A DNA stretch of 64,000 nucleotides. Origin: Thermodesulfobacteriota bacterium. Lineage in GTDB: Bacteria > Desulfobacterota > UBA8473. The stretch covers positions 1,728 through 65,727 of the forward strand of contig JBFLWQ010000007.1 in NCBI GenBank assembly GCA_040757775.1. Reading direction: 5' to 3'. A model generated the notes under the pieces. It made no database searches, had not been told where the DNA came from, and was given only the letters and a program-made list of their open reading frames with translations. Numbering within the stretch: the first letter of the stretch is position 1; each line of letters starts with the position of its first letter. The position numbers and the translations under genes were made by a program. Below, piece after piece: positions 4,813-56,253 of the stretch.

Positions 4813-5000
4813 AAATGCTAACAAAATTATCAAGCCTACGCCGGGGAAACCTGTTTTCTCTTCTTCTCGTTCTTTGGCCCGCGCGGCTGATGATAAGTGT
4901 TGAGCCTATAGAAAAAGTCTAAACTGATCGGGAAACTAAATTTACGTATAAGGACTTTTTTACAGACTAGTTATAAGGTTCAAGTAATCAAGGGAATGTA

Positions 5001-6905: not shown

Positions 6906-6927
6906 AAATAAACATACCGAGGAGAAG

Positions 6928-7362
6928 ATGATAAAACTCTATAATCTGAGCTGCTTCATCGCCATTATTTTTTTGTTCGTCCTGTTCAGTTCCGCTATTG
7001 CAAAAGAGCAAAATAAGGGAGTTGCGGTTGAAATTACGCAACAACAAAGCTCAATTAACACAGGCAAAAAATTTATAACTCTTGGATTTAAGGGCATTCA
7101 TTTGGGAATGAAACGGGATGAAGTTAAAGAAGTTGTTAGTTCCGGCAACGGATGGAGTTTCCGATACGGTTCCGATGTCTCTGACGAGTACGTATTTTTG
7201 AACTCAGAAACTCTTGTTGGCTGCAAAGATCAAGGTGAAACTGAAGAATGTTATAGGATCGACACGGTAGCACTCCGGTTTTTTGAGGATCATGTTATTC
7301 AAATAAGTCTTGATAGCCCGGAGTATACCGCGACTGACATAGATTATTATGTCAAGGGGTGA
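6928..7362 (+). CDS. Secreted hypothetical protein (signal peptide)
   Basis: Hydrophobic N-terminus ending ...SSAIA-KEQ. RBS GAGGAGAAGATG. Confidence 0.4.
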   Translation: MIKLYNLSCFIAIIFLFVLFSSAIAKEQNKGVAVEITQQQSSINTGKKFITLGFKGIHLGMKRDEVKEVVSSGNGWSFRYGSDVSDEYVFLNSETLVGCKDQGETEECYRIDTVALRFFEDHVIQISLDSPEYTATDIDYYVKG

Positions 7363-12851: not shown

Positions 12852-13049
12852 CAGGCAGGCGTTTAGCTTTTACACAAGAAGATTGCGGTAGCCCGATATA
12901 AAGATTCATATACCCAGAGAAAGCTCATCCCCATCTTTCTTGAAAAACAAATCCCACCAAGAGGACAAAATCGCTAAAATGAAACTTACATGCCTCAAAG
13001 AGACACAAAGAATAAGTAAAATGTCTTTGCGAGGAGATCGCCATAGGCG

Positions 13050-13164
13050 AACAGCCCCTACAACAGCACACTTAAGTGTGCTGTTGTTAAGAATGGGATT
13101 GCTTAATCCGCCTCTGGCGGATTCGCAATGACAGGAATAGGTACATTTTCAAGTGAAAGAATCT
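13050..13164 (+). repeat. R-element copy 1: 26-bp perfect palindrome CAACAGCACACTTAAGTGTGCTGTTG (13061..13086) + hairpin AATCCGCC-TCTG-GGCGGATT + conserved leader running into the rsmG start
   Basis: About 85% identical over ~100 bp to 44196..44311, including the stretch AATGACAGGAATAGGT..ATTTTCAA(G/A)TGAAAGAA that carries the start codon. Confidence 0.75.
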
Positions 13165-13809
13165 ATAGAGGGAATCCTTTATAAAGGGGCAAATGCAATA
13201 AATGTCTCTTTGACCCCCAGGGAGATTGAACTATTTAAAACTTACCTGATGGAGCTAAAGAGGTGGAGTTCTAAAATAAATATTACCGCCATACACGATG
13301 ACATAGAAATTGTGGTCAAACATTTCATTGACTCTCTTTCCCCGTTGAACTATATACCCCAAAACTCCTCCTTGCTGGACATTGGTTCAGGAGGGGGGTT
13401 CCCAGGTATACCTTTGAAGATTGCAAATCCGTCTTTATCTGTTACTTTGCTCGATTCTACCCTGAAGAAGGTAAACTTCCAAAAACAAATAATAAGACTA
13501 CTACAACTGAATAATATTAAAGCAGTGCATGGAAGGGCCGAAGATAAAAGCTCCTACAGAAAAACGGATTCACCTTTTGACGTGGTTATTTCAAGGGCAT
13601 TTTCAGGTTTAGGGAAATTTTTAGCTATAGGAGAACCCTATTTAAAGAGAGACGGGCTCCTGATAGCTATGCGTGGAAGGGGGGCAAAAAGAGAACTGGC
13701 TGTAAATGAAGAGGTGTTGACATGTCTGAGGCTAAAGCTTGTTAACATAGTTGAATTTAACTTGCCGTACTTAAATGAAAAGAGAAAGCTTATCGTACTT
13801 ACTAAATAG
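13153..13809 (+). CDS. rsmG: 16S rRNA (guanine527-N7)-methyltransferase RsmG
   Basis: GidB family: ...LKRWSSKINITAI..., SAM motif LLDIGSGGGFPGIPL. GTG start lies inside the R-element. Confidence 0.9.
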   Translation: MKESIEGILYKGANAINVSLTPREIELFKTYLMELKRWSSKINITAIHDDIEIVVKHFIDSLSPLNYIPQNSSLLDIGSGGGFPGIPLKIANPSLSVTLLDSTLKKVNFQKQIIRLLQLNNIKAVHGRAEDKSSYRKTDSPFDVVISRAFSGLGKFLAIGEPYLKRDGLLIAMRGRGAKRELAVNEEVLTCLRLKLVNIVEFNLPYLNEKRKLIVLTK

Positions 13810-14017
13810 TTCATCCTGAAAAATTCCCTTTTCCGCTCTCTGGTGCAGGTTTTTTGACCCATCTATGACTTGCTCCAGGCATTTTCAGGAACTCTCCGCC
13901 TTTAGCGGATCAAACACCTGAAAATGCTTATCTTCCGCTTTATCAAGATGGGTACCCCAAAAATCCTGCTCATGTTTGCTCCAAAAGAAATTTTTCATTT
14001 TTCAGGGTGGACTAAAT
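13803..14017 (-). mobile_element. MITE-like element copy A (~215 bp) with ~16-bp terminal inverted repeats AGTTCAYCCTGAAAAA / TTTTTCAGGGTGGACT and flanking ACTAAATA
   Basis: Reverse complement is ~85% identical over its length to 51739..51956. Inserted exactly at the rsmG stop codon. No conserved ORF. Confidence 0.65.
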
Positions 14018-14138
14018 ACTCTATTGAAGACTCACCTGTCTGCTAAGAATATAATCTTCCAGTATATAATTTCCCTACATTTTTATAGCGTTTCAGCCAC
14101 TTTAGAAAAGGCATTCAGGTGATCTCTAAAAAGCAAAA

Positions 14139-14154
14139 AGTTCCACGTGAAACA
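14139..14154. promoter_or_regulatory. parS-like centromere site AGTTCCACGTGAAACA
   Basis: One mismatch from the canonical parS TGTTNCACGTGAAACA. Located ~90 bp upstream of parA. Confidence 0.5.
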
Positions 14155-14244
14155 TCCGATTTCCCCTTTTCAAAGGATACATTCTGTGTTATTATTCAAT
14201 AAAATCCTTCTTTTCCCCTTAAATAAATAAGAAATATCATCTAA

Positions 14245-16202: not shown

Positions 16203-18680
<2,478 letters not shown>

Positions 18681-29707: not shown

Positions 29708-29938
29708 TTATTTCCCTTTCTCTGCTGGAGCAGGAGCCTGTTCTGCTGGAGCAGGAGCCTGTTCTGCTGGAGCAGGGGCCTGTTCTGCTGGAGCAGGAGC
29801 TGGAGTCACTTGTTCCGTTGGTGCCCCCGCTTCCTCGGCCGGTTTTCCCTTGCATCCAATAGTAGATACTGTCAGGCCAAGGACAAAGAAAAAGCAAACC
29901 AAAAGATAACCTAATTTCCTCATCGTTTTCACCTCCAT
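29708..29938 (-). CDS. Small lipoprotein with (PAPAEQA)n tandem repeats
   Basis: Signal peptide with lipobox ...STIGC. Three 21-bp DNA repeats (29721..29800) encode AEQAPAP x3. Confidence 0.55.
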   Translation of the reverse strand: MEVKTMRKLGYLLVCFFFVLGLTVSTIGCKGKPAEEAGAPTEQVTPAPAPAEQAPAPAEQAPAPAEQAPAPAEKGK

Positions 29939-43168: not shown

Positions 43169-43230
43169 ACTGTTATATCGGTCATTAGGCATTTACAAAT
43201 TGAAATAGACACAGGTAGAAGGAGGATCAC

Positions 43231-43326
43231 ATGGCAATAGTTGAGGTAAGCATTGTCCCCATTGCTGTCTCTAATACCAGCCTTGGTGAATATGTGGCAA
43301 ATGCCTTAAAGGATTTTAGGAAATGA
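43231..43326 (+). pseudogene. Duplicated 5' fragment (31 codons) of the MTH1187/YkoF-family gene
   Basis: MAIVEVSIVPIAVSNTSLGEYVANALK..; ~85% nucleotide identity to the start of 43867..44166. Strong RBS GAAGGAGG. Confidence 0.6.
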
Positions 43327-43841: not shown

Positions 43842-43866
43842 AAAAGCTGAGGAAAAGGAGAGTCAG

Positions 43867-44166
43867 ATGGCAATAGTTGAGGTAAGTATAGTGCCTATTG
43901 GTGTACCGAATACCAGCCTTAGTGAATATGTGGCAAATGCCCTAAAGGTACTTAAAAATTCTGGACTTAAATACGATTTGACCTCCATGGGCACCATCAT
44001 CGAAGGAGAGCTTGAGAGGATTCTCAGCATAATCAGAGAGATGCACGAAACCCCTTTTAAAAAGGGCGTTATGCGTGTGGTTACAACAGTAAAAATCGAC
44101 GACAGAAGGGATAAACCCGCTACCTCCGAAACAAAGGTGGAATCTGTAGTTAAGAAGATGGGATGA
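43867..44166 (+). CDS. MTH1187/YkoF-family (DUF77) protein
   Basis: 99 aa: MAIVEVSIVPIG...GTIIEGELERILSIIREMHE...RVVTTVKIDDRRDK is typical of the family. Confidence 0.8.
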   Translation: MAIVEVSIVPIGVPNTSLSEYVANALKVLKNSGLKYDLTSMGTIIEGELERILSIIREMHETPFKKGVMRVVTTVKIDDRRDKPATSETKVESVVKKMG

Positions 44167-44195
44167 GCAGGGGAAGAATCAATGAAACCCGCGAG

Positions 44196-44311
44196 CGACC
44201 CCTTCAGCAGCACACTTAAGTGTGCTGTTAAAAAGGATGGGATTGCTTTGCCTGCCTGTGGCGGGCTCGTAATGACAGGAATAGGTGTATTTTCAAATGA
44301 AAGAAGCGATG
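44196..44311 (+). repeat. R-element copy 2: 20-bp perfect palindrome CAGCACACTTAAGTGTGCTG (44208..44227) + hairpin GCCTGCC-TGTG-GCGGGC + conserved leader running into the amrS start
   Basis: Homologous to 13050..13164. The hairpin arms carry compensatory changes relative to copy 1. Confidence 0.75.
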
Positions 44312-49167: not shown

Positions 49168-50217
49168 ATGAAGAAGATGTCCACTGAAATAAAGGTAGGT
49201 GTGTTCGTGGTACTGGGAATACTTGTCCTTGCCTACATGACTGTAAATATAGAGAAGATAAGGATTGGCAGGGCGGTGGGATATAGAGTGTATACAAAGC
49301 TGGACTCTGCCTCAGGGTTGGTTAAGAATTCACCTGTCAGGATTGCAGGCGTTGAAGTAGGCAGGGTAGAAAACATTGCCCTCGATGCTGGAAAGGCAAA
49401 GGTGACCTTACGTCTCCCCTTTCAGGTAACCCTGCCCGTTGATTCTCTGGTTTATGTGAAATCAGAGGGACTCTTAGGCGAAAAGTATATCGAGATTCAA
49501 CCAGGTTCGTCTAAAGATGTATTTGCCCGGCAAAATGCTGAAATCAGGCAGGGGGCATCTCAGGTAGACATGGATCAGATATTTGCTCAAGTAAACTCTG
49601 TTGCCACAGATATTAAAGGAGTAACTGCCTCATTAAACAGGGTATTAGGGGGGCAAGAAGGCGAACAGACCTTGAGAAAGACCTTTGAAAATATTAAAGA
49701 GGTAACCAATGAGTTGAATATAACAGTGAAGCAAAATAGAGAAAAATTTAGTACTATTATGAATAATTTTGAAAAACTCAGCGGTAACCTGGTCGGGGTA
49801 TCTGCCAAGGCTGGAGATGCCTTTAACACTATAGACAGGGTCGCAAAGAAGATCGACAATGGGGAGGGAACCCTGGGTAAACTGGTGGCGGATAAAACTC
49901 TATATGACCAGTCCAAAGGTGCCATGGCAAGCCTTAACAATATAGTCAAAAAGATTGAAAAGGGGGAGGGAACTCTGGGTAAACTGGTGGCGGATAAAAC
50001 TCTATATGACCAGTCCAAAGGTGCCATGACAAGCCTTAACAATATAGCCAAAAAGGTTGAAAAGGGGGAGGGAACCCTGGGCAAATTGACTACTGACGAG
50101 ACCCTTTATACTGAGACAAAGAGTGCCCTAAAGAAGGTTAATAAGGCTGCCGGAGGGTTACAGGAGCAAACTCCTATAACTGTGTTGGGGACTGTTTTAG
50201 GTACTGTTTTGAAATAG
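49168..50217 (+). CDS. mlaD: MCE-domain protein MlaD with three ~28-aa C-terminal tandem repeats
   Basis: N-terminal TM + MCE domain. Three copies of GEGTLGKL(V/T)ADKTLYDQSKGAM.SLNNI.KK(I/V)EK encoded by ~84-bp DNA repeats at about 49850..50130. Confidence 0.8.
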   Translation: MKKMSTEIKVGVFVVLGILVLAYMTVNIEKIRIGRAVGYRVYTKLDSASGLVKNSPVRIAGVEVGRVENIALDAGKAKVTLRLPFQVTLPVDSLVYVKSEGLLGEKYIEIQPGSSKDVFARQNAEIRQGASQVDMDQIFAQVNSVATDIKGVTASLNRVLGGQEGEQTLRKTFENIKEVTNELNITVKQNREKFSTIMNNFEKLSGNLVGVSAKAGDAFNTIDRVAKKIDNGEGTLGKLVADKTLYDQSKGAMASLNNIVKKIEKGEGTLGKLVADKTLYDQSKGAMTSLNNIAKKVEKGEGTLGKLTTDETLYTETKSALKKVNKAAGGLQEQTPITVLGTVLGTVLK

Positions 50218-50240: not shown

Positions 50241-51740
50241 ATGAAGAGAACTATTGTCTTTATAATTACCCTTTTTCTCTTGATTCTTGCCTCCGGATGT
50301 GCCACTTCTCTTACAAACAACCGCAGATTGAATATGGAACCTTTATTCAATTATGACAGGGACACAGAGACAGAAGCATCTGAATTGGATGCTCTTGGTC
50401 CCCTTTTTACCTTTCAGTCTAAACCGAAGGAAAAAGAATACGGGTTTAGGCCCTTTTTTTATGTGAGGAAAAACGAAGATGACCATTTTAAGGAGGTAGA
50501 GTTCCTATACCCGCTTGGCAGGTACAGAAAAACAGACAAAGAAAGGGTTTCTCAGTTTGTTCCCTTTTTTTCTTCTCACAAGGATCTAACCGAAGACTCC
50601 AAGAAGCCCTCTGATTTCGGGTTCTTCCCTGTCTTCTGGGGAAAAGATGAGGAAGATAAGAGCTATTGGGGGGTTTTCCCTATATACGGACGGCTAAACC
50701 ACAGGTTTGGAAAGGATCAGATCCGCTTCGTTCTCTGGCCTGTGTATTCTGATTCTAAAGAGGACGATTCATGGACATATAACGTCCTTTGGCCAATCTT
50801 TTCTTATACCACAGGGGAAGGCAAAAGGGGGTTTAGAGTATGGCCTCTTTACGGACATGAAGAAAAAACGGGTGAATATTCAAAGAATTTCGCATTATGG
50901 CCTATATTCTTCTTTCAAAAAACTGACATGGATACTGACAACCCCCAAAGGTTTACGGCAGTTTTCCCGCTGTTTGCAGATACCAGCTCACCACAAAAGG
51001 ACTCAAGGACATTTCTTTGGCCTTTTTTCAACTATACCAATGACAAAGCGAATAATTATAAACAATGGGATATGCCCTGGCCAATCTTCCATTACAGCAA
51101 AGGAAAAGAAATTAAAAGCTTTAGATTGTTTCCCCTTTATGGATACAAGACAAGACCTGATTCAAAGACCCGTTTCTTTCTATGGCCATTATACACATAT
51201 GACAAAGAAATTCTTGAAGACCACGAGGACACAACTTATAGATTCCTGTTAATCAATAAATATCAAAGAATGGTATGGAAAGGGAATCTTAAGGACGCAA
51301 AATCCGTAAGAATATGGCCTATATTCTATTATAATAGAAAACAAGATGGCTCTGTTAAATTCTCCTTCCCGGAGATTATCCCCTTAGAGGATGAGGGATT
51401 TGAAAGAAACTGGGCACCACTTTTCAGGCTTTACCAATATAAGGGAGATGCCGAGGGTAATATGGAATCAAAATTCTTCTGGGGGCTTTACAGACACAAA
51501 AAGATGGATTCAAAAGAGTTTTTTGAGCTATCTTTTCTATTATCATATGAAAAAGAGAAAAATAGAATGTGCTTTTCTGTGTTAAAGGGGCTTTTTGAAT
51601 ACCAACAGGAAAACGGTGTGAATTCTATCAGGCTCCTTTATCTTCCTCGTTTAATAAAATGGGAATCCGGCGAAGAGACCCAGAATCAGCCGGTCTTGCC
51701 AGCCTCAAGAAGATTGGGAGAGAGCTGGGTTTATGACTAA
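50241..51740 (+). CDS. Lipoprotein built from ~14 degenerate ~20-25-aa repeats centred on a (L/V)WP(I/L)(F/Y) motif
   Basis: Lipobox ...LILASGC. Recurrent FVLWPVY, NVLWPIF, FALWPIF, FLWPFF, WPIFHY, FLWPLY, IWPIF etc. Confidence 0.6.
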   Translation: MKRTIVFIITLFLLILASGCATSLTNNRRLNMEPLFNYDRDTETEASELDALGPLFTFQSKPKEKEYGFRPFFYVRKNEDDHFKEVEFLYPLGRYRKTDKERVSQFVPFFSSHKDLTEDSKKPSDFGFFPVFWGKDEEDKSYWGVFPIYGRLNHRFGKDQIRFVLWPVYSDSKEDDSWTYNVLWPIFSYTTGEGKRGFRVWPLYGHEEKTGEYSKNFALWPIFFFQKTDMDTDNPQRFTAVFPLFADTSSPQKDSRTFLWPFFNYTNDKANNYKQWDMPWPIFHYSKGKEIKSFRLFPLYGYKTRPDSKTRFFLWPLYTYDKEILEDHEDTTYRFLLINKYQRMVWKGNLKDAKSVRIWPIFYYNRKQDGSVKFSFPEIIPLEDEGFERNWAPLFRLYQYKGDAEGNMESKFFWGLYRHKKMDSKEFFELSFLLSYEKEKNRMCFSVLKGLFEYQQENGVNSIRLLYLPRLIKWESGEETQNQPVLPASRRLGESWVYD

Positions 51741-51956
51741 ATAGTTCACCCTGAAAAACGAGAAGTTTCCTTTGGAGCGAACATGAGCAGGATTTTTGGG
51801 GTACCCATCTTGACGAAGCGGAAGATAAGTCAGCCTTTGGCGGATTTGACCCGCCAGAGGCGGGGAGTTCCTGAAAATGCCTGAAGCAAGTCTAGGATGG
51901 GTCAAAAAACCTGCGCGGGAGAGCGGAAAAGGGAATTCTTCAGAGTGGACTAAATA
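51739..51956 (+). mobile_element. MITE-like element copy B (~218 bp) with terminal inverted repeats AGTTCACCCTGAAAAA / TTCTTCAGAGTGGACT and flanking ACTAAATA
   Basis: ~85% identical to the reverse complement of 13803..14017. Inserted at the stop codon of the lipoprotein gene. Confidence 0.65.
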
Positions 51957-54865: not shown

Positions 54866-55387
54866 ATGAAAGAAGATATGAGGGGGAAAAATCCGTTGGT
54901 TTCCATTGTTCTGGGCAGTGATTCCGATTTGCCTATTATGGAGGAAGCCAGAAAGGTTTTGGAAAATCTGGGCATAGAGTATGAGCTGACCATTTCTTCT
55001 GCCCATCGTTCTCCAGAGAGGACGGTGAAATACGCTAAATCTGCTATCAAAAAAGGGGTTGAGGTGATTATAGCCGCTGCTGGCGGGGCTGCACACTTAG
55101 CAGGGGTAATTGCTGCAGAGACGGTCTTACCGGTAATTGGTGTCCCTATTGATTCATCTTCTCTAAAGGGTTTAGACGCACTGCTCTCGACAGCCCAGAT
55201 GCCCGGAGGTGTGCCTGTTGCTACCATGGCTATTGGAAAAGCAGGAGCAAAGAATGCAGCAATCCTCGCTGCTCAGATATTGGGTGTGAAGTACTCTAAA
55301 ATTAGAGACGAGTTGAAGAGGTATAAAAGAGAACTGGCATTTGAAGTGGAAAAGAAGGCACAAAAGCTAGAAAACCAGGTAAGATAA
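54866..55387 (+). CDS. purE: N5-carboxyaminoimidazole ribonucleotide mutase
   Basis: PLVSIVLGSDSDLPIM and AAGGAAHLAG motifs. Confidence 0.9.
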   Translation: MKEDMRGKNPLVSIVLGSDSDLPIMEEARKVLENLGIEYELTISSAHRSPERTVKYAKSAIKKGVEVIIAAAGGAAHLAGVIAAETVLPVIGVPIDSSSLKGLDALLSTAQMPGGVPVATMAIGKAGAKNAAILAAQILGVKYSKIRDELKRYKRELAFEVEKKAQKLENQVR

Positions 55388-55422
55388 AATCTCCTCTTTG
55401 CTAAGGGTTTTTTCAGTGTGAA

Positions 55423-56253
55423 CTACCTAATCTTCTCATTGGGCAGAGTTATAGACACTACTTGCCCTGAATTTCCGAGCTTACCCAGGGCTTTTCCGTT
55501 ATAGAAAAGATCAATTCCTCCAGCGTTCCCGATGAATAATTTGAGTGTATGAAGGGCATTCCATGTTAATTTTTCCCCTGGCTTCAGGATAACTTCAAAA
55601 GGCGGTTTATCATCGATTTGAACCCTTAACCAGGTTGTTTCAGAAGTTTTTGCCAGGAGGGTTTTTTCTCCCTCTTTTTGAGATTCGGCCTTTTTCTTCT
55701 CTGATATTAATGGTTCTCTCCCATCGGACAATGAGATAGTTGATCCAGGTTCTTTCGGCGGTTTATCCGCTGTTACCACCCTCTCCGCTGTCTCTTCGGG
55801 CAAAGGGAGCTGAACCATCGTTTCTTCAGGTGGCACAGGAGGTACCAGCGATGGTTTAGAAATAACATCTGTACGGGTTTTAATCTCCTCTTTTTTGTCG
55901 AGGTAAAGATAAAAAAACAGAAAAACAATTAAGATTATTGCTAATGGAGAAATGATAAGTAATCGTTTGGACAAAGGGGGTTTTTCTGGGGGGGGAGCAA
56001 TCTCTTTGACCTTTTTCAGGTTATTTAAATAACTCTTATATTGCAGAACGACCTCGTCCTTATCCAATCCCACATAACTTGCATATGCCTTTAAGAATCC
56101 TATGACAAAAACTTCCGCAGGCAACTTGTCTGTGTCATCACTCTCTATAGCCTCCAGGAAGACCTTTCTTATCCTCGTAGCTGCTGAAATCTCTTCAAGG
56201 GAAACAGACCTTGATTCTCTCTTTTTCCTGAGATATTCTCCAAAAGAGTCCAT
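55423..56253 (-). CDS. rodZ: RodZ-like cytoskeleton protein (HTH + TM + DUF4115)
   Basis: N-terminal XRE-type HTH FGEYLRKKRESRSVSLEEISAATRI, a central TM helix, and a C-terminal DUF4115-like beta domain. Confidence 0.7.
   Translation of the reverse strand: MDSFGEYLRKKRESRSVSLEEISAATRIRKVFLEAIESDDTDKLPAEVFVIGFLKAYASYVGLDKDEVVLQYKSYLNNLKKVKEIAPPPEKPPLSKRLLIISPLAIILIVFLFFYLYLDKKEEIKTRTDVISKPSLVPPVPPEETMVQLPLPEETAERVVTADKPPKEPGSTISLSDGREPLISEKKKAESQKEGEKTLLAKTSETTWLRVQIDDKPPFEVILKPGEKLTWNALHTLKLFIGNAGGIDLFYNGKALGKLGNSGQVVSITLPNEKIR

Follow-up and report, generated by a model that had tools for sequence, protein, structure and literature searches.

A family of short palindromic elements, very probably miniature inverted-repeat transposons, found at gene ends in an uncultivated Thermodesulfobacteriota bacterium

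The stretch of DNA considered here (64,000 nucleotides from contig JBFLWQ010000007.1 of the Thermodesulfobacteriota bacterium assembly GCA_040757775.1; hereafter the window, with position 1 as its first letter) contains two full-length copies, A and B, and two remnants of a short non-coding element that seems very likely to be a transposable element of the miniature inverted-repeat kind (MITE). The neighbouring genes recognized by Pfam are rsmG (GidB), parA, parB, gyrB and purH; the 499-aa protein encoded upstream of purH, which has the look of a lipoprotein, gave no Pfam match. An initial annotation had described two non-coding copies of about 215 bp, about 85% identical and in opposite orientation, and both are indeed present (204 and 207 bp, 83-88% identity). 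The copies, the target-site duplications (TSDs) at their ends and the genes that they adjoin are as follows.

13153-13809, plus strand: rsmG open reading frame (ORF), Pfam GidB
13807-13809, plus strand: TAG stop of rsmG, made of the 'TA' of the target and the first 'G' of the element
13803-13808, unstranded: TSD TAAATA to the left of copy A (same hexamer at 14013-14018)
13809-14012, minus strand: copy A, full-length, 204 bp, inverted with respect to copy B (family profile, nhmmer, E = 2e-70)
14013-14018, unstranded: TSD TAAATA to the right of copy A (same hexamer at 13803-13808)
14019-14046, plus strand: stranded former 3' end of rsmG: final base of the Tyr codon, SIEDSPVC, and the native TAA stop (14044-14046)
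50241-51740: gene for the 499-aa lipoprotein-like protein, its TAA stop (51738-51740) lying inside the left TSD of copy B
51738-51743, unstranded: TSD TAAATA to the left of copy B; bases 1-3 of the hexamer are the TAA stop of the lipoprotein-like gene
51744-51950, plus strand: copy B, full-length, 207 bp (family profile, nhmmer, E = 4e-58)
51951-51956, unstranded: TSD TAAATA to the right of copy B, with purH's own ribosome-binding site and ATG (51978) downstream

The two longest inverted repeat pairs returned by a repeat search of the window were 13807-13914 with 51845-51952 (86% identity) and 13927-14021 with 51735-51829 (88%); the overall identity of the two copies is 83% when gaps are counted. 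Read on the plus strand, copy A extends from GTTCATCCTGAAAAA to TTTTTCAGGGTGGAC and copy B from GTTCACCCTGAAAAA to TTCTTCAGAGTGGAC, and these ends bear out the terminal inverted repeats (TIRs) of about 16 bp that had been proposed. The 8-mer ACTAAATA that had been reported as repeated at the ends is found at all four of them, but the duplication is one of 6 bp rather than 8 bp: on the right-hand side, the 'AC' of ACTAAATA is the element's own last two bases (...GGAC), leaving only TAAATA as duplicated target. The self-complementarity goes beyond the TIRs: the full length of roughly 205 bp is an imperfect palindrome, for which folding predicts hairpins of -72 to -84 kcal/mol (z = -5 to -9), whichever strand is taken (copy A, -75 kcal/mol, z = -6 to -9; copy B, -84 kcal/mol, z = -5.2). 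The longest ORFs inside the copies are of 33-37 aa and are not shared between the two, in agreement with the earlier view that no transposase is encoded. The terminus motif TTTTTCAGKRYGRACTA has five matches in the window, with none expected.

The element is by no means confined to the window. The exact 20-mer GGATTTTTGGGGTACCCATC, taken from the element, matched 49 further loci in seven metagenome-assembled genomes (MAGs), none of them being the window itself and 31 of them in a single MAG, JBDRGH01; the flanks of these loci are unrelated. The MAGs, labelled Desulfobacteria, Desulfobacterales, Deltaproteobacteria or 'Pseudomonadota', represent uncultivated Desulfobacteria-like organisms, akin to sulfate reducers, from groundwater and sediment. 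A family profile (nhmmer) built from nine copies recovered 29 full-length copies (197-231 bp, nested insertions included) together with many partial ones, and within the window detected only copies A and B and the remnant at gyrB. All full-length copies have TIRs of about 16 bp (GTTCAYCCTGAAAAA / TTTTTCAGGRYGAAC), starting with G TTCAYCCTGAAAAATG and ending with CATTTTTCAGGRYGAA C, and across the family the internal ORFs are of at most 57 aa and show no conservation. Perfect 6-bp direct repeats flank 15 of the 29 full-length copies and comprise eight different sequences (TATTTA five times, TAATTA three times, TACTTA twice, and TAAATA, TAATAA, TAAGTA, TAAAGA and TAATTC once each); among the remainder, one has a 15-bp repeat and the others have one or two mismatches. 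Since the hexamers are mostly non-palindromic and recur in direct orientation, they are TSDs and not extensions of the TIRs. The target logo of the insertion sites is Y|TAATTA|R. Thus the searches that had been suggested for further copies and for an insertion-site consensus both gave positive answers (dozens more copies in other genomes by 20-mer and profile), and the choice originally left between target-site duplication and target preference turns out to be no choice, as both apply.

Comparison with related genomes provides empty sites for both window copies, a check that had been suggested. A metagenome scan with RsmG led to four close relatives, in one of which (L053; RsmG about 82% identical) the site of copy A is empty, and the window sequence from which copy A and one hexamer have been removed aligns with L053 over 131 nt spanning the junction, without gaps and at 84% identity. 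The rsmG tail of L053 reads ...FSRHPIEDSPVH (ending in HPIEDSPVH and a stop) and is followed by TAAGAATATAATCTTCCAG, and past the right end of copy A the window sequence continues as (TA)C TCT ATT GAA GAC TCA CCT GTC TGC TAA GAATATAATCTTCCAG. Translation of the element-excised rsmG gives ...LIVLTKYSIEDSPVC and a stop, matching the 3' end of L053 rsmG and the DNA downstream of it without gaps. Copy A therefore inserted within the 3' end of rsmG, 10 codons before the native stop, making a new TAG. Relatives vary in the tail removed in this way, and the GidB domain (residues 25-203) has been left whole. The initial annotation had both copies inserted precisely at stop codons: the rsmG TAG (13807-13809) and the lipoprotein TAA (51738-51740) do lie at the junctions, but copy A landed 10 codons upstream of the native rsmG stop. 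For copy B, homologues of the lipoprotein-like protein at 89%, 77% and 71% identity were traced to contigs of four relatives, and in the relatives L059-L063 the lipoprotein-purH spacer is only 5-52 nt long and has no element; copy B therefore lies, in a tight operon junction, between the TAA stop and the native ribosome-binding site of purH. Copies A and B postdate the divergence from relatives with proteins 82-89% identical. The rsmG-parA spacer carries independent insertions at other positions in L050 (this MITE family) and L053 (a related subfamily). Upstream of parA in the window there is a parS-like palindrome, GTTCCACGTGAAACA (14140-14154), conserved in L050, L051 and L053, with a promoter-like site downstream of it (14167-14195).

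The remaining pieces in the window are remnants, one fused to gyrB and the other at the end of rodZ.

16210-16276, plus strand: left-arm remnant fused to gyrB (GTTCGTCCTGAAAAATG, a nested hairpin, then AAAAATTTCGATTGGAGCAAAAATGAGCAG; family profile, nhmmer, E = 2e-5)
16227-16246, unstranded: nested hairpin CCTGCCTGTGGGCAGACAGG, 20 nt, a secondary insertion in the gyrB arm, absent from the L050 arm
55402-55423, plus strand: solo right-end remnant AAGGGTTTTTTCAGTGTGAAC, 22 nt, found by the terminus motif

Two copies and a single remnant had been listed initially, the remnant being placed upstream of gyrB at 16203..16240. All three exist, but the gyrB remnant truly extends over 16210-16276, through the Shine-Dalgarno sequence and the ATG, and is kept in a second species, and the rodZ remnant is a fourth piece not listed before. 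The AAAAATTTCGATTGGAGCAAAAATGAGCAG part of the gyrB remnant matches the family left arm through GGAG, ATG and five further bases, so that the gyrB Shine-Dalgarno sequence (GGAG, 16260-16263) and start codon (16269-16271) are both inside it. In L050 (GyrB 97% identical), the same arm is present at the orthologous place (6908-6961, E = 6e-8) without the nested hairpin, and in L052 (GyrB 80% identical) the arm is absent and there is an unrelated native leader, gyrB again starting ATGAG. We take it that an element inserted upstream of gyrB, the segment between its internal ATGAGCAG and the gyrB ATGAG being lost afterwards. To judge from these alignments, a MITE-derived remnant would supply the Shine-Dalgarno sequence of the essential gyrB gene in at least two species, and the start codon is probably MITE-derived too. 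The rodZ remnant lies between purE (54866-55387) and the convergent rodZ (55423-56253, minus strand; Pfam HTH_25 and RodZ_C), and its final C together with the following TA makes the TAG stop of rodZ.

Hairpins related to that nested in the gyrB arm, 27-54 nt long, are nested in many JBDRGH01 copies. More generally, GC-rich hairpins of the form CCTGCCTGTG...CAGACAGG (20-54 nt) are nested at varied positions in copies of the element, at 16227-16246 in the window and in L003, L004, L006, L008 and others (after GGAGCGAACA), and one of the same type is present in an intergenic spacer (L052, about 4840-4880). They may be a tiny mobile palindrome resembling repetitive extragenic palindromic (REP) sequences.

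Prokaryotic MITEs are some 50-800 bp long and have TIRs of at least 10-15 bp. The short non-coding nature of the element, its TIRs, the varied TSDs, the dispersed copies, and the presence or absence of the element at orthologous sites make it very probable that this is a family of non-autonomous DNA transposons (MITEs) of about 200 bp, palindromic and bounded by TIRs. It is a previously undescribed MITE family of an otherwise ordinary kind. The core of the initial annotation (a non-coding MITE-like family with TIRs, a target duplication or preference, a link to stop codons, and a remnant at gyrB) has therefore stood up well. In the mechanism that we envisage, a transposase supplied in trans would bind the ends, make a 6-bp staggered cut in a target (preferably the palindromic Y|TAATTA|R) and paste the element in. 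Decayed copies could then be co-opted, as the left arm carries an inward-facing GGAG-N5/6-ATG of which the gyrB arm would be an example.

Several observations weigh against this picture, or at least against its simplest form. The duplications are imperfect in about half of the copies. Within a single genome, copies (82-95% identical) are no more similar than those taken from different genomes, so that the family seems to be an old one with several sublineages, and its activity in the window's genome may have ended. Copy number was counted in other genomes, the window's own genome being outside the searched collections. We infer the transposase family, the cut-and-paste chemistry and the 6-bp staggered cut, and the autonomous partner with matching TIRs that the initial annotation had proposed to look for did not emerge from the window or the fetched loci. 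In full, no autonomous partner was found in the window, 78 fetched loci, viral contigs or plasmids; neither the window nor any fetched locus has a TIR-flanked ORF; a search for the TIR-end pattern (up to three mismatches) outside the known copies gave short remnants only; an all-versus-all BLASTP of the ORFs at the loci revealed no repeated transposase-like ORF; a protein search with the element's longest ORF turned up no transposase with the same N-terminus, the only matches being 15 ORFs of 52-79 aa; and neither two viral-contig scans nor a BLASTN of plasmids gave any match to the family.

Among the sublineages referred to above are a subfamily of 231 bp that carries a nested hairpin, a copy whose apex is inverted, and two or more subfamilies in which other termini are combined with a homologous interior. 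The inverted apex (about 40 nt, reversed with respect to the rest of the family) is in L027:3859-4062, which has a 15-bp target duplication, and fits a flip between the internal repeats CATTTTCAG/CTGAAAATG; a second copy in the same locus (L027:1574-1685) is a 112-bp internal-deletion derivative with its own duplication, TTAGTA. Related subfamilies that share the interior and have other termini (e.g. GCTTTGAARAAG) are represented at L053:472-615, L005:3313-3472, L045:685-870, L074:5886-6080, L010:61-226 and L026:4-171, the L074 copy starting right after the TAA stop of an ABC-transporter gene. At L032:6300-6322, a full copy is bordered on its left by the right end of another copy (TTTTTAGGATGAAC|TAATTA|GTCCG...), an arrangement that reads as a target hexamer used twice or as a tandem insertion. 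A truncated copy is present at an orthologous site in three MAGs (L016:1086-1226, L020:1130-1275 and L022:2921-3043), with breakpoints within or near the element's central hairpin, and in two of the three (L016 and L020) it adjoins a gene or pseudogene for a tyrosine recombinase (Phage_int_SAM_4).

The most durable alternative is that the element is kept mainly for the benefit of the host, as a co-transcribed hairpin module that governs how stable mRNA is or how it is processed, or that uncouples translation, its mobility being secondary. The very stable hairpins predicted for both strands would suit such a role, as would the location of 20 of the 26 classifiable copies between co-directional genes (often in tight operon junctions), and there are published precedents in the enterobacterial repetitive intergenic consensus (ERIC) and Correia elements (PMC2229807). 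Moreover, the interior blocks GATGGGTCAAAAAACCTG and GAGCGGAAAAGGGAATTTTTCAG are nearly invariant, whereas the extreme termini vary, and interior homology is common to subfamilies with different ends; the invariance, however, stems partly from the picking of copies by an exact 20-mer. There is almost no covariation (a double change in 5 of 53 predicted pairs; covariation term, -0.64 kcal/mol), and no orientation bias with respect to the gene reading into the element; the copies contain neither a U-tract terminator nor a promoter consensus; and close relatives lack both window copies, which are thus dispensable. On balance, we consider maintenance for host use to be unlikely. A selected structured RNA was tried as a candidate and rejected on the same negligible covariation and on the lack of an Rfam match: in Rfam 15, nothing in the window reached the gathering threshold, and the regions around the two copies gave no match at E <= 1. 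Copies A and B hold no terminator-like site, the one such hit being the nested 20-nt hairpin of the gyrB arm, on the opposite strand. A small-protein gene (GGAG-N6-ATG, MSRIFGVPILTKRK...) was likewise rejected, its ATG being mutated in several copies and the frames diverging after 14-16 codons through indels.

Returning to the transposon interpretation, the link with stop codons that was first drawn from the window copies extends to the family. Seven or eight of the 29 full-length copies contact the stop codon of a flanking long ORF, either with the stop as the outer triplet of the TSD (L007, L023, L025, L034, L042 and window copy B; L010 is doubtful) or at the junction (window copy A), against the 2-6% expected; in L074, it is the inverted repeat's TGA that closes a gene. 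Two null models were used, one drawing on non-coding TAWWTA sites of the same loci that hold no element, and a more conservative one in which occupied sites were returned to the pool. Stop overlap is expected at 2.1% under the first (p ~ 1e-7 to 2e-6) and 5-6% under the second (p ~ 1e-3), figures to be read with caution since crude ORF calls and loci chosen for containing an element tell against them. Enrichment persists without the two window copies (p = 2e-5 to 8e-3). We regard the stop-codon bias as real, and its size as uncertain.

The ends of the element suggest how such a bias could arise. The terminus TAATTA|GTTCAYCCTGA provides TAA, TAG and TGA in three frames within 17 nt (the TGA being at positions 9-11 of the inverted repeat), and the other end does likewise on the other strand; in addition, the target consensus holds TAA on both strands, and the junction always makes TAG from the 'TA' of the target and the 'G' of the element. 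With stops in three frames at the ends, insertions on or just before a stop should be nearly harmless and hence accumulate there, unlike those that hit promoters, ribosome-binding sites or the bodies of genes. An ORF entering the element in any frame is closed within 17 nt, and the outcomes in the window are the lipoprotein TAA inside a duplication, rsmG shortened by 10 codons through its junction TAG, and rodZ likewise ending in a junction TAG.

A more ambitious version of the transposon interpretation, to which we give little credence for the present, would have the element serve as a mobile 'stop-hairpin-start' cassette, its transposition biased to stop sites and operon junctions and its fragments repeatedly domesticated as translation signals. 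The parts could be the three-frame stops at both ends, the hairpin of about 200 nt, and the inward-facing Shine-Dalgarno sequence and ATG; if this were so, fragments would provide the gyrB initiation region, shared between species, as well as the rsmG and rodZ stops within the window.

A slightly poorer prospect is that insertion is actively directed to gene ends (by DNA structure, by transcription/translation coupling or by wider context), stops being true targets. Stop contacts are enriched about 13-fold over unoccupied TAWWTA sites in the same loci, and are enriched under the conservative null too; three of the window's four pieces of the family are in contact with a stop codon, and the rsmG-parA spacer has been hit independently in three lineages. 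On the other hand, the TAA on both strands of the target and the three-frame stops mean that a bias is to be expected from selection alone, about 70% of copies are away from stop codons, copy A entered coding sequence out of frame and not at a stop, and the null model is crude. Direction of this kind we therefore think improbable.

Movement as a REP or REPIN element (mobilized by a RAYT) or as an IS200/IS605-type palindrome, by a Y1/HUH transposase, would account for a palindromic, mostly intergenic and multi-copy element, but has very little to recommend it, as such elements lack TIRs and TSDs, whereas both are present here (the TSDs being variable and of 6 bp), and the length is about 200 bp compared with 20-40 bp. 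Least credible of all is a duplicated 3' untranslated region or segmental duplication in place of independent insertions, a refutation that the initial annotation had itself raised from the similarity: although both copies follow genes and share the hexamer TAAATA, the flanks are unrelated, the orientations opposite, each copy has its own TSD, the empty sites are precise, and there are 49 further loci, so that empty sites and flank diversity dispose of it.

Two other classes of element were tried and set aside. Correia elements duplicate only TA and have inverted repeats of about 26 bp. A TA-only duplication with longer TIRs was rejected for the present family, for the hexamers at the flanks repeat directly and are not palindromic, and it takes the removal of 6 bp to align the empty site without gaps; further, the TSDs TAATAA, TAAAGA and TAAGTA do not end in TA beside the left end, and so fail to show the TA duplication of the Correia and RUP type. 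An integron attC site, an idea prompted by the tyrosine-recombinase pseudogene beside the truncated copy in L016/L020, seems unlikely: judged by eye, the ends do not appear to fit the attC core motifs, and target duplication is not a feature of attC sites.

MITEs have been found in 56.5% of surveyed prokaryotic genomes (PMC11602168), and with more than half of such genomes containing them, another family is unsurprising. In what has been published of it, Chunjie, from Geobacter uraniireducens Rf4 (Chen et al. 2008, as summarized in PMC3184786 and PMC10969869), resembles the present element in its formerly 'deltaproteobacterial' host, its length (178-235 bp), its non-coding nature and very stable fold-back, and its dozens of full and partial copies, some of them overlapping gene ends or lying within intact operons; by that same description it is set apart by inverted repeats of 21 bp and direct repeats of 9 bp, compared with TIRs of about 16 bp and TSDs of 6 bp at Y|TAATTA|R here. 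The Correia (or NEMIS) elements of Neisseria are palindromic MITEs co-transcribed with their neighbours, with ends that carry or create signals and hairpins that are processed in the mRNA (PMC2229807). They are thus like the present family in being palindromic MITEs with ends that create or carry translation or transcription signals, but differ in sequence and in the length of the duplication; RNase III processing and promoter activity have been demonstrated for Correia. ERIC (or IRU) elements of enterobacteria and Yersinia are similarly imperfect palindromes over their full length, located between co-transcribed genes, and are candidate modulators of the stability of flanking mRNA; they differ in length (about 127 bp), in sequence and in the orientation dependence of their effect, whereas no orientation bias was found here. 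RUP of Streptococcus pneumoniae, mobilized by IS630-Spn1, is also a non-coding MITE with stops in all frames, but it has a partner insertion sequence with matching inverted repeats and a TA duplication, in contrast to the 6-bp duplication and the lack of a partner among the sequences searched here. The present family offers a clean, well-bounded example from a poorly studied, uncultivated lineage, in which the rewriting of gene ends is visible in a single 64-kb window. The 6-bp TSD at Y|TAATTA|R and the end sequence provide a handle for finding the transposase, and the stop-codon bias poses a testable question of target choice versus selection. Recognition of the family should also avoid spurious small-ORF calls, 15 such 'proteins' being already in public databases.

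Finally, we draw attention to other repeats in the window. The 'R-element' (13047-13166 and 44191-44310) is a direct repeat of about 115 nt, 82% identical, with a perfect palindrome, AACAGCACACTTAAGTGTGCTGTT; its copies run into downstream start codons (the rsmG GTG at 13153 and that of a radical-SAM gene at 44285), and the relatives L050-L053 lack it upstream of rsmG. A further mobile or duplicated 5' leader is one possible reading of it. The common origin of the R-element and the MITE family that had been suggested was not upheld, the shared feature being only a generic 5-bp GC hairpin, CCGCCnnnGGCGG, and most members of the family having GAGCCCGAAGGGCGAG at the centre instead. Three 102-nt tandem repeats (49846-50151) are inside an MlaD-family gene (49168-50217), and there are 21-nt tandem repeats at 29721-29821. 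A 94-nt repeat (43219-43312 and 43855-43948; 86% identical) is located at the starts of two neighbouring small genes.

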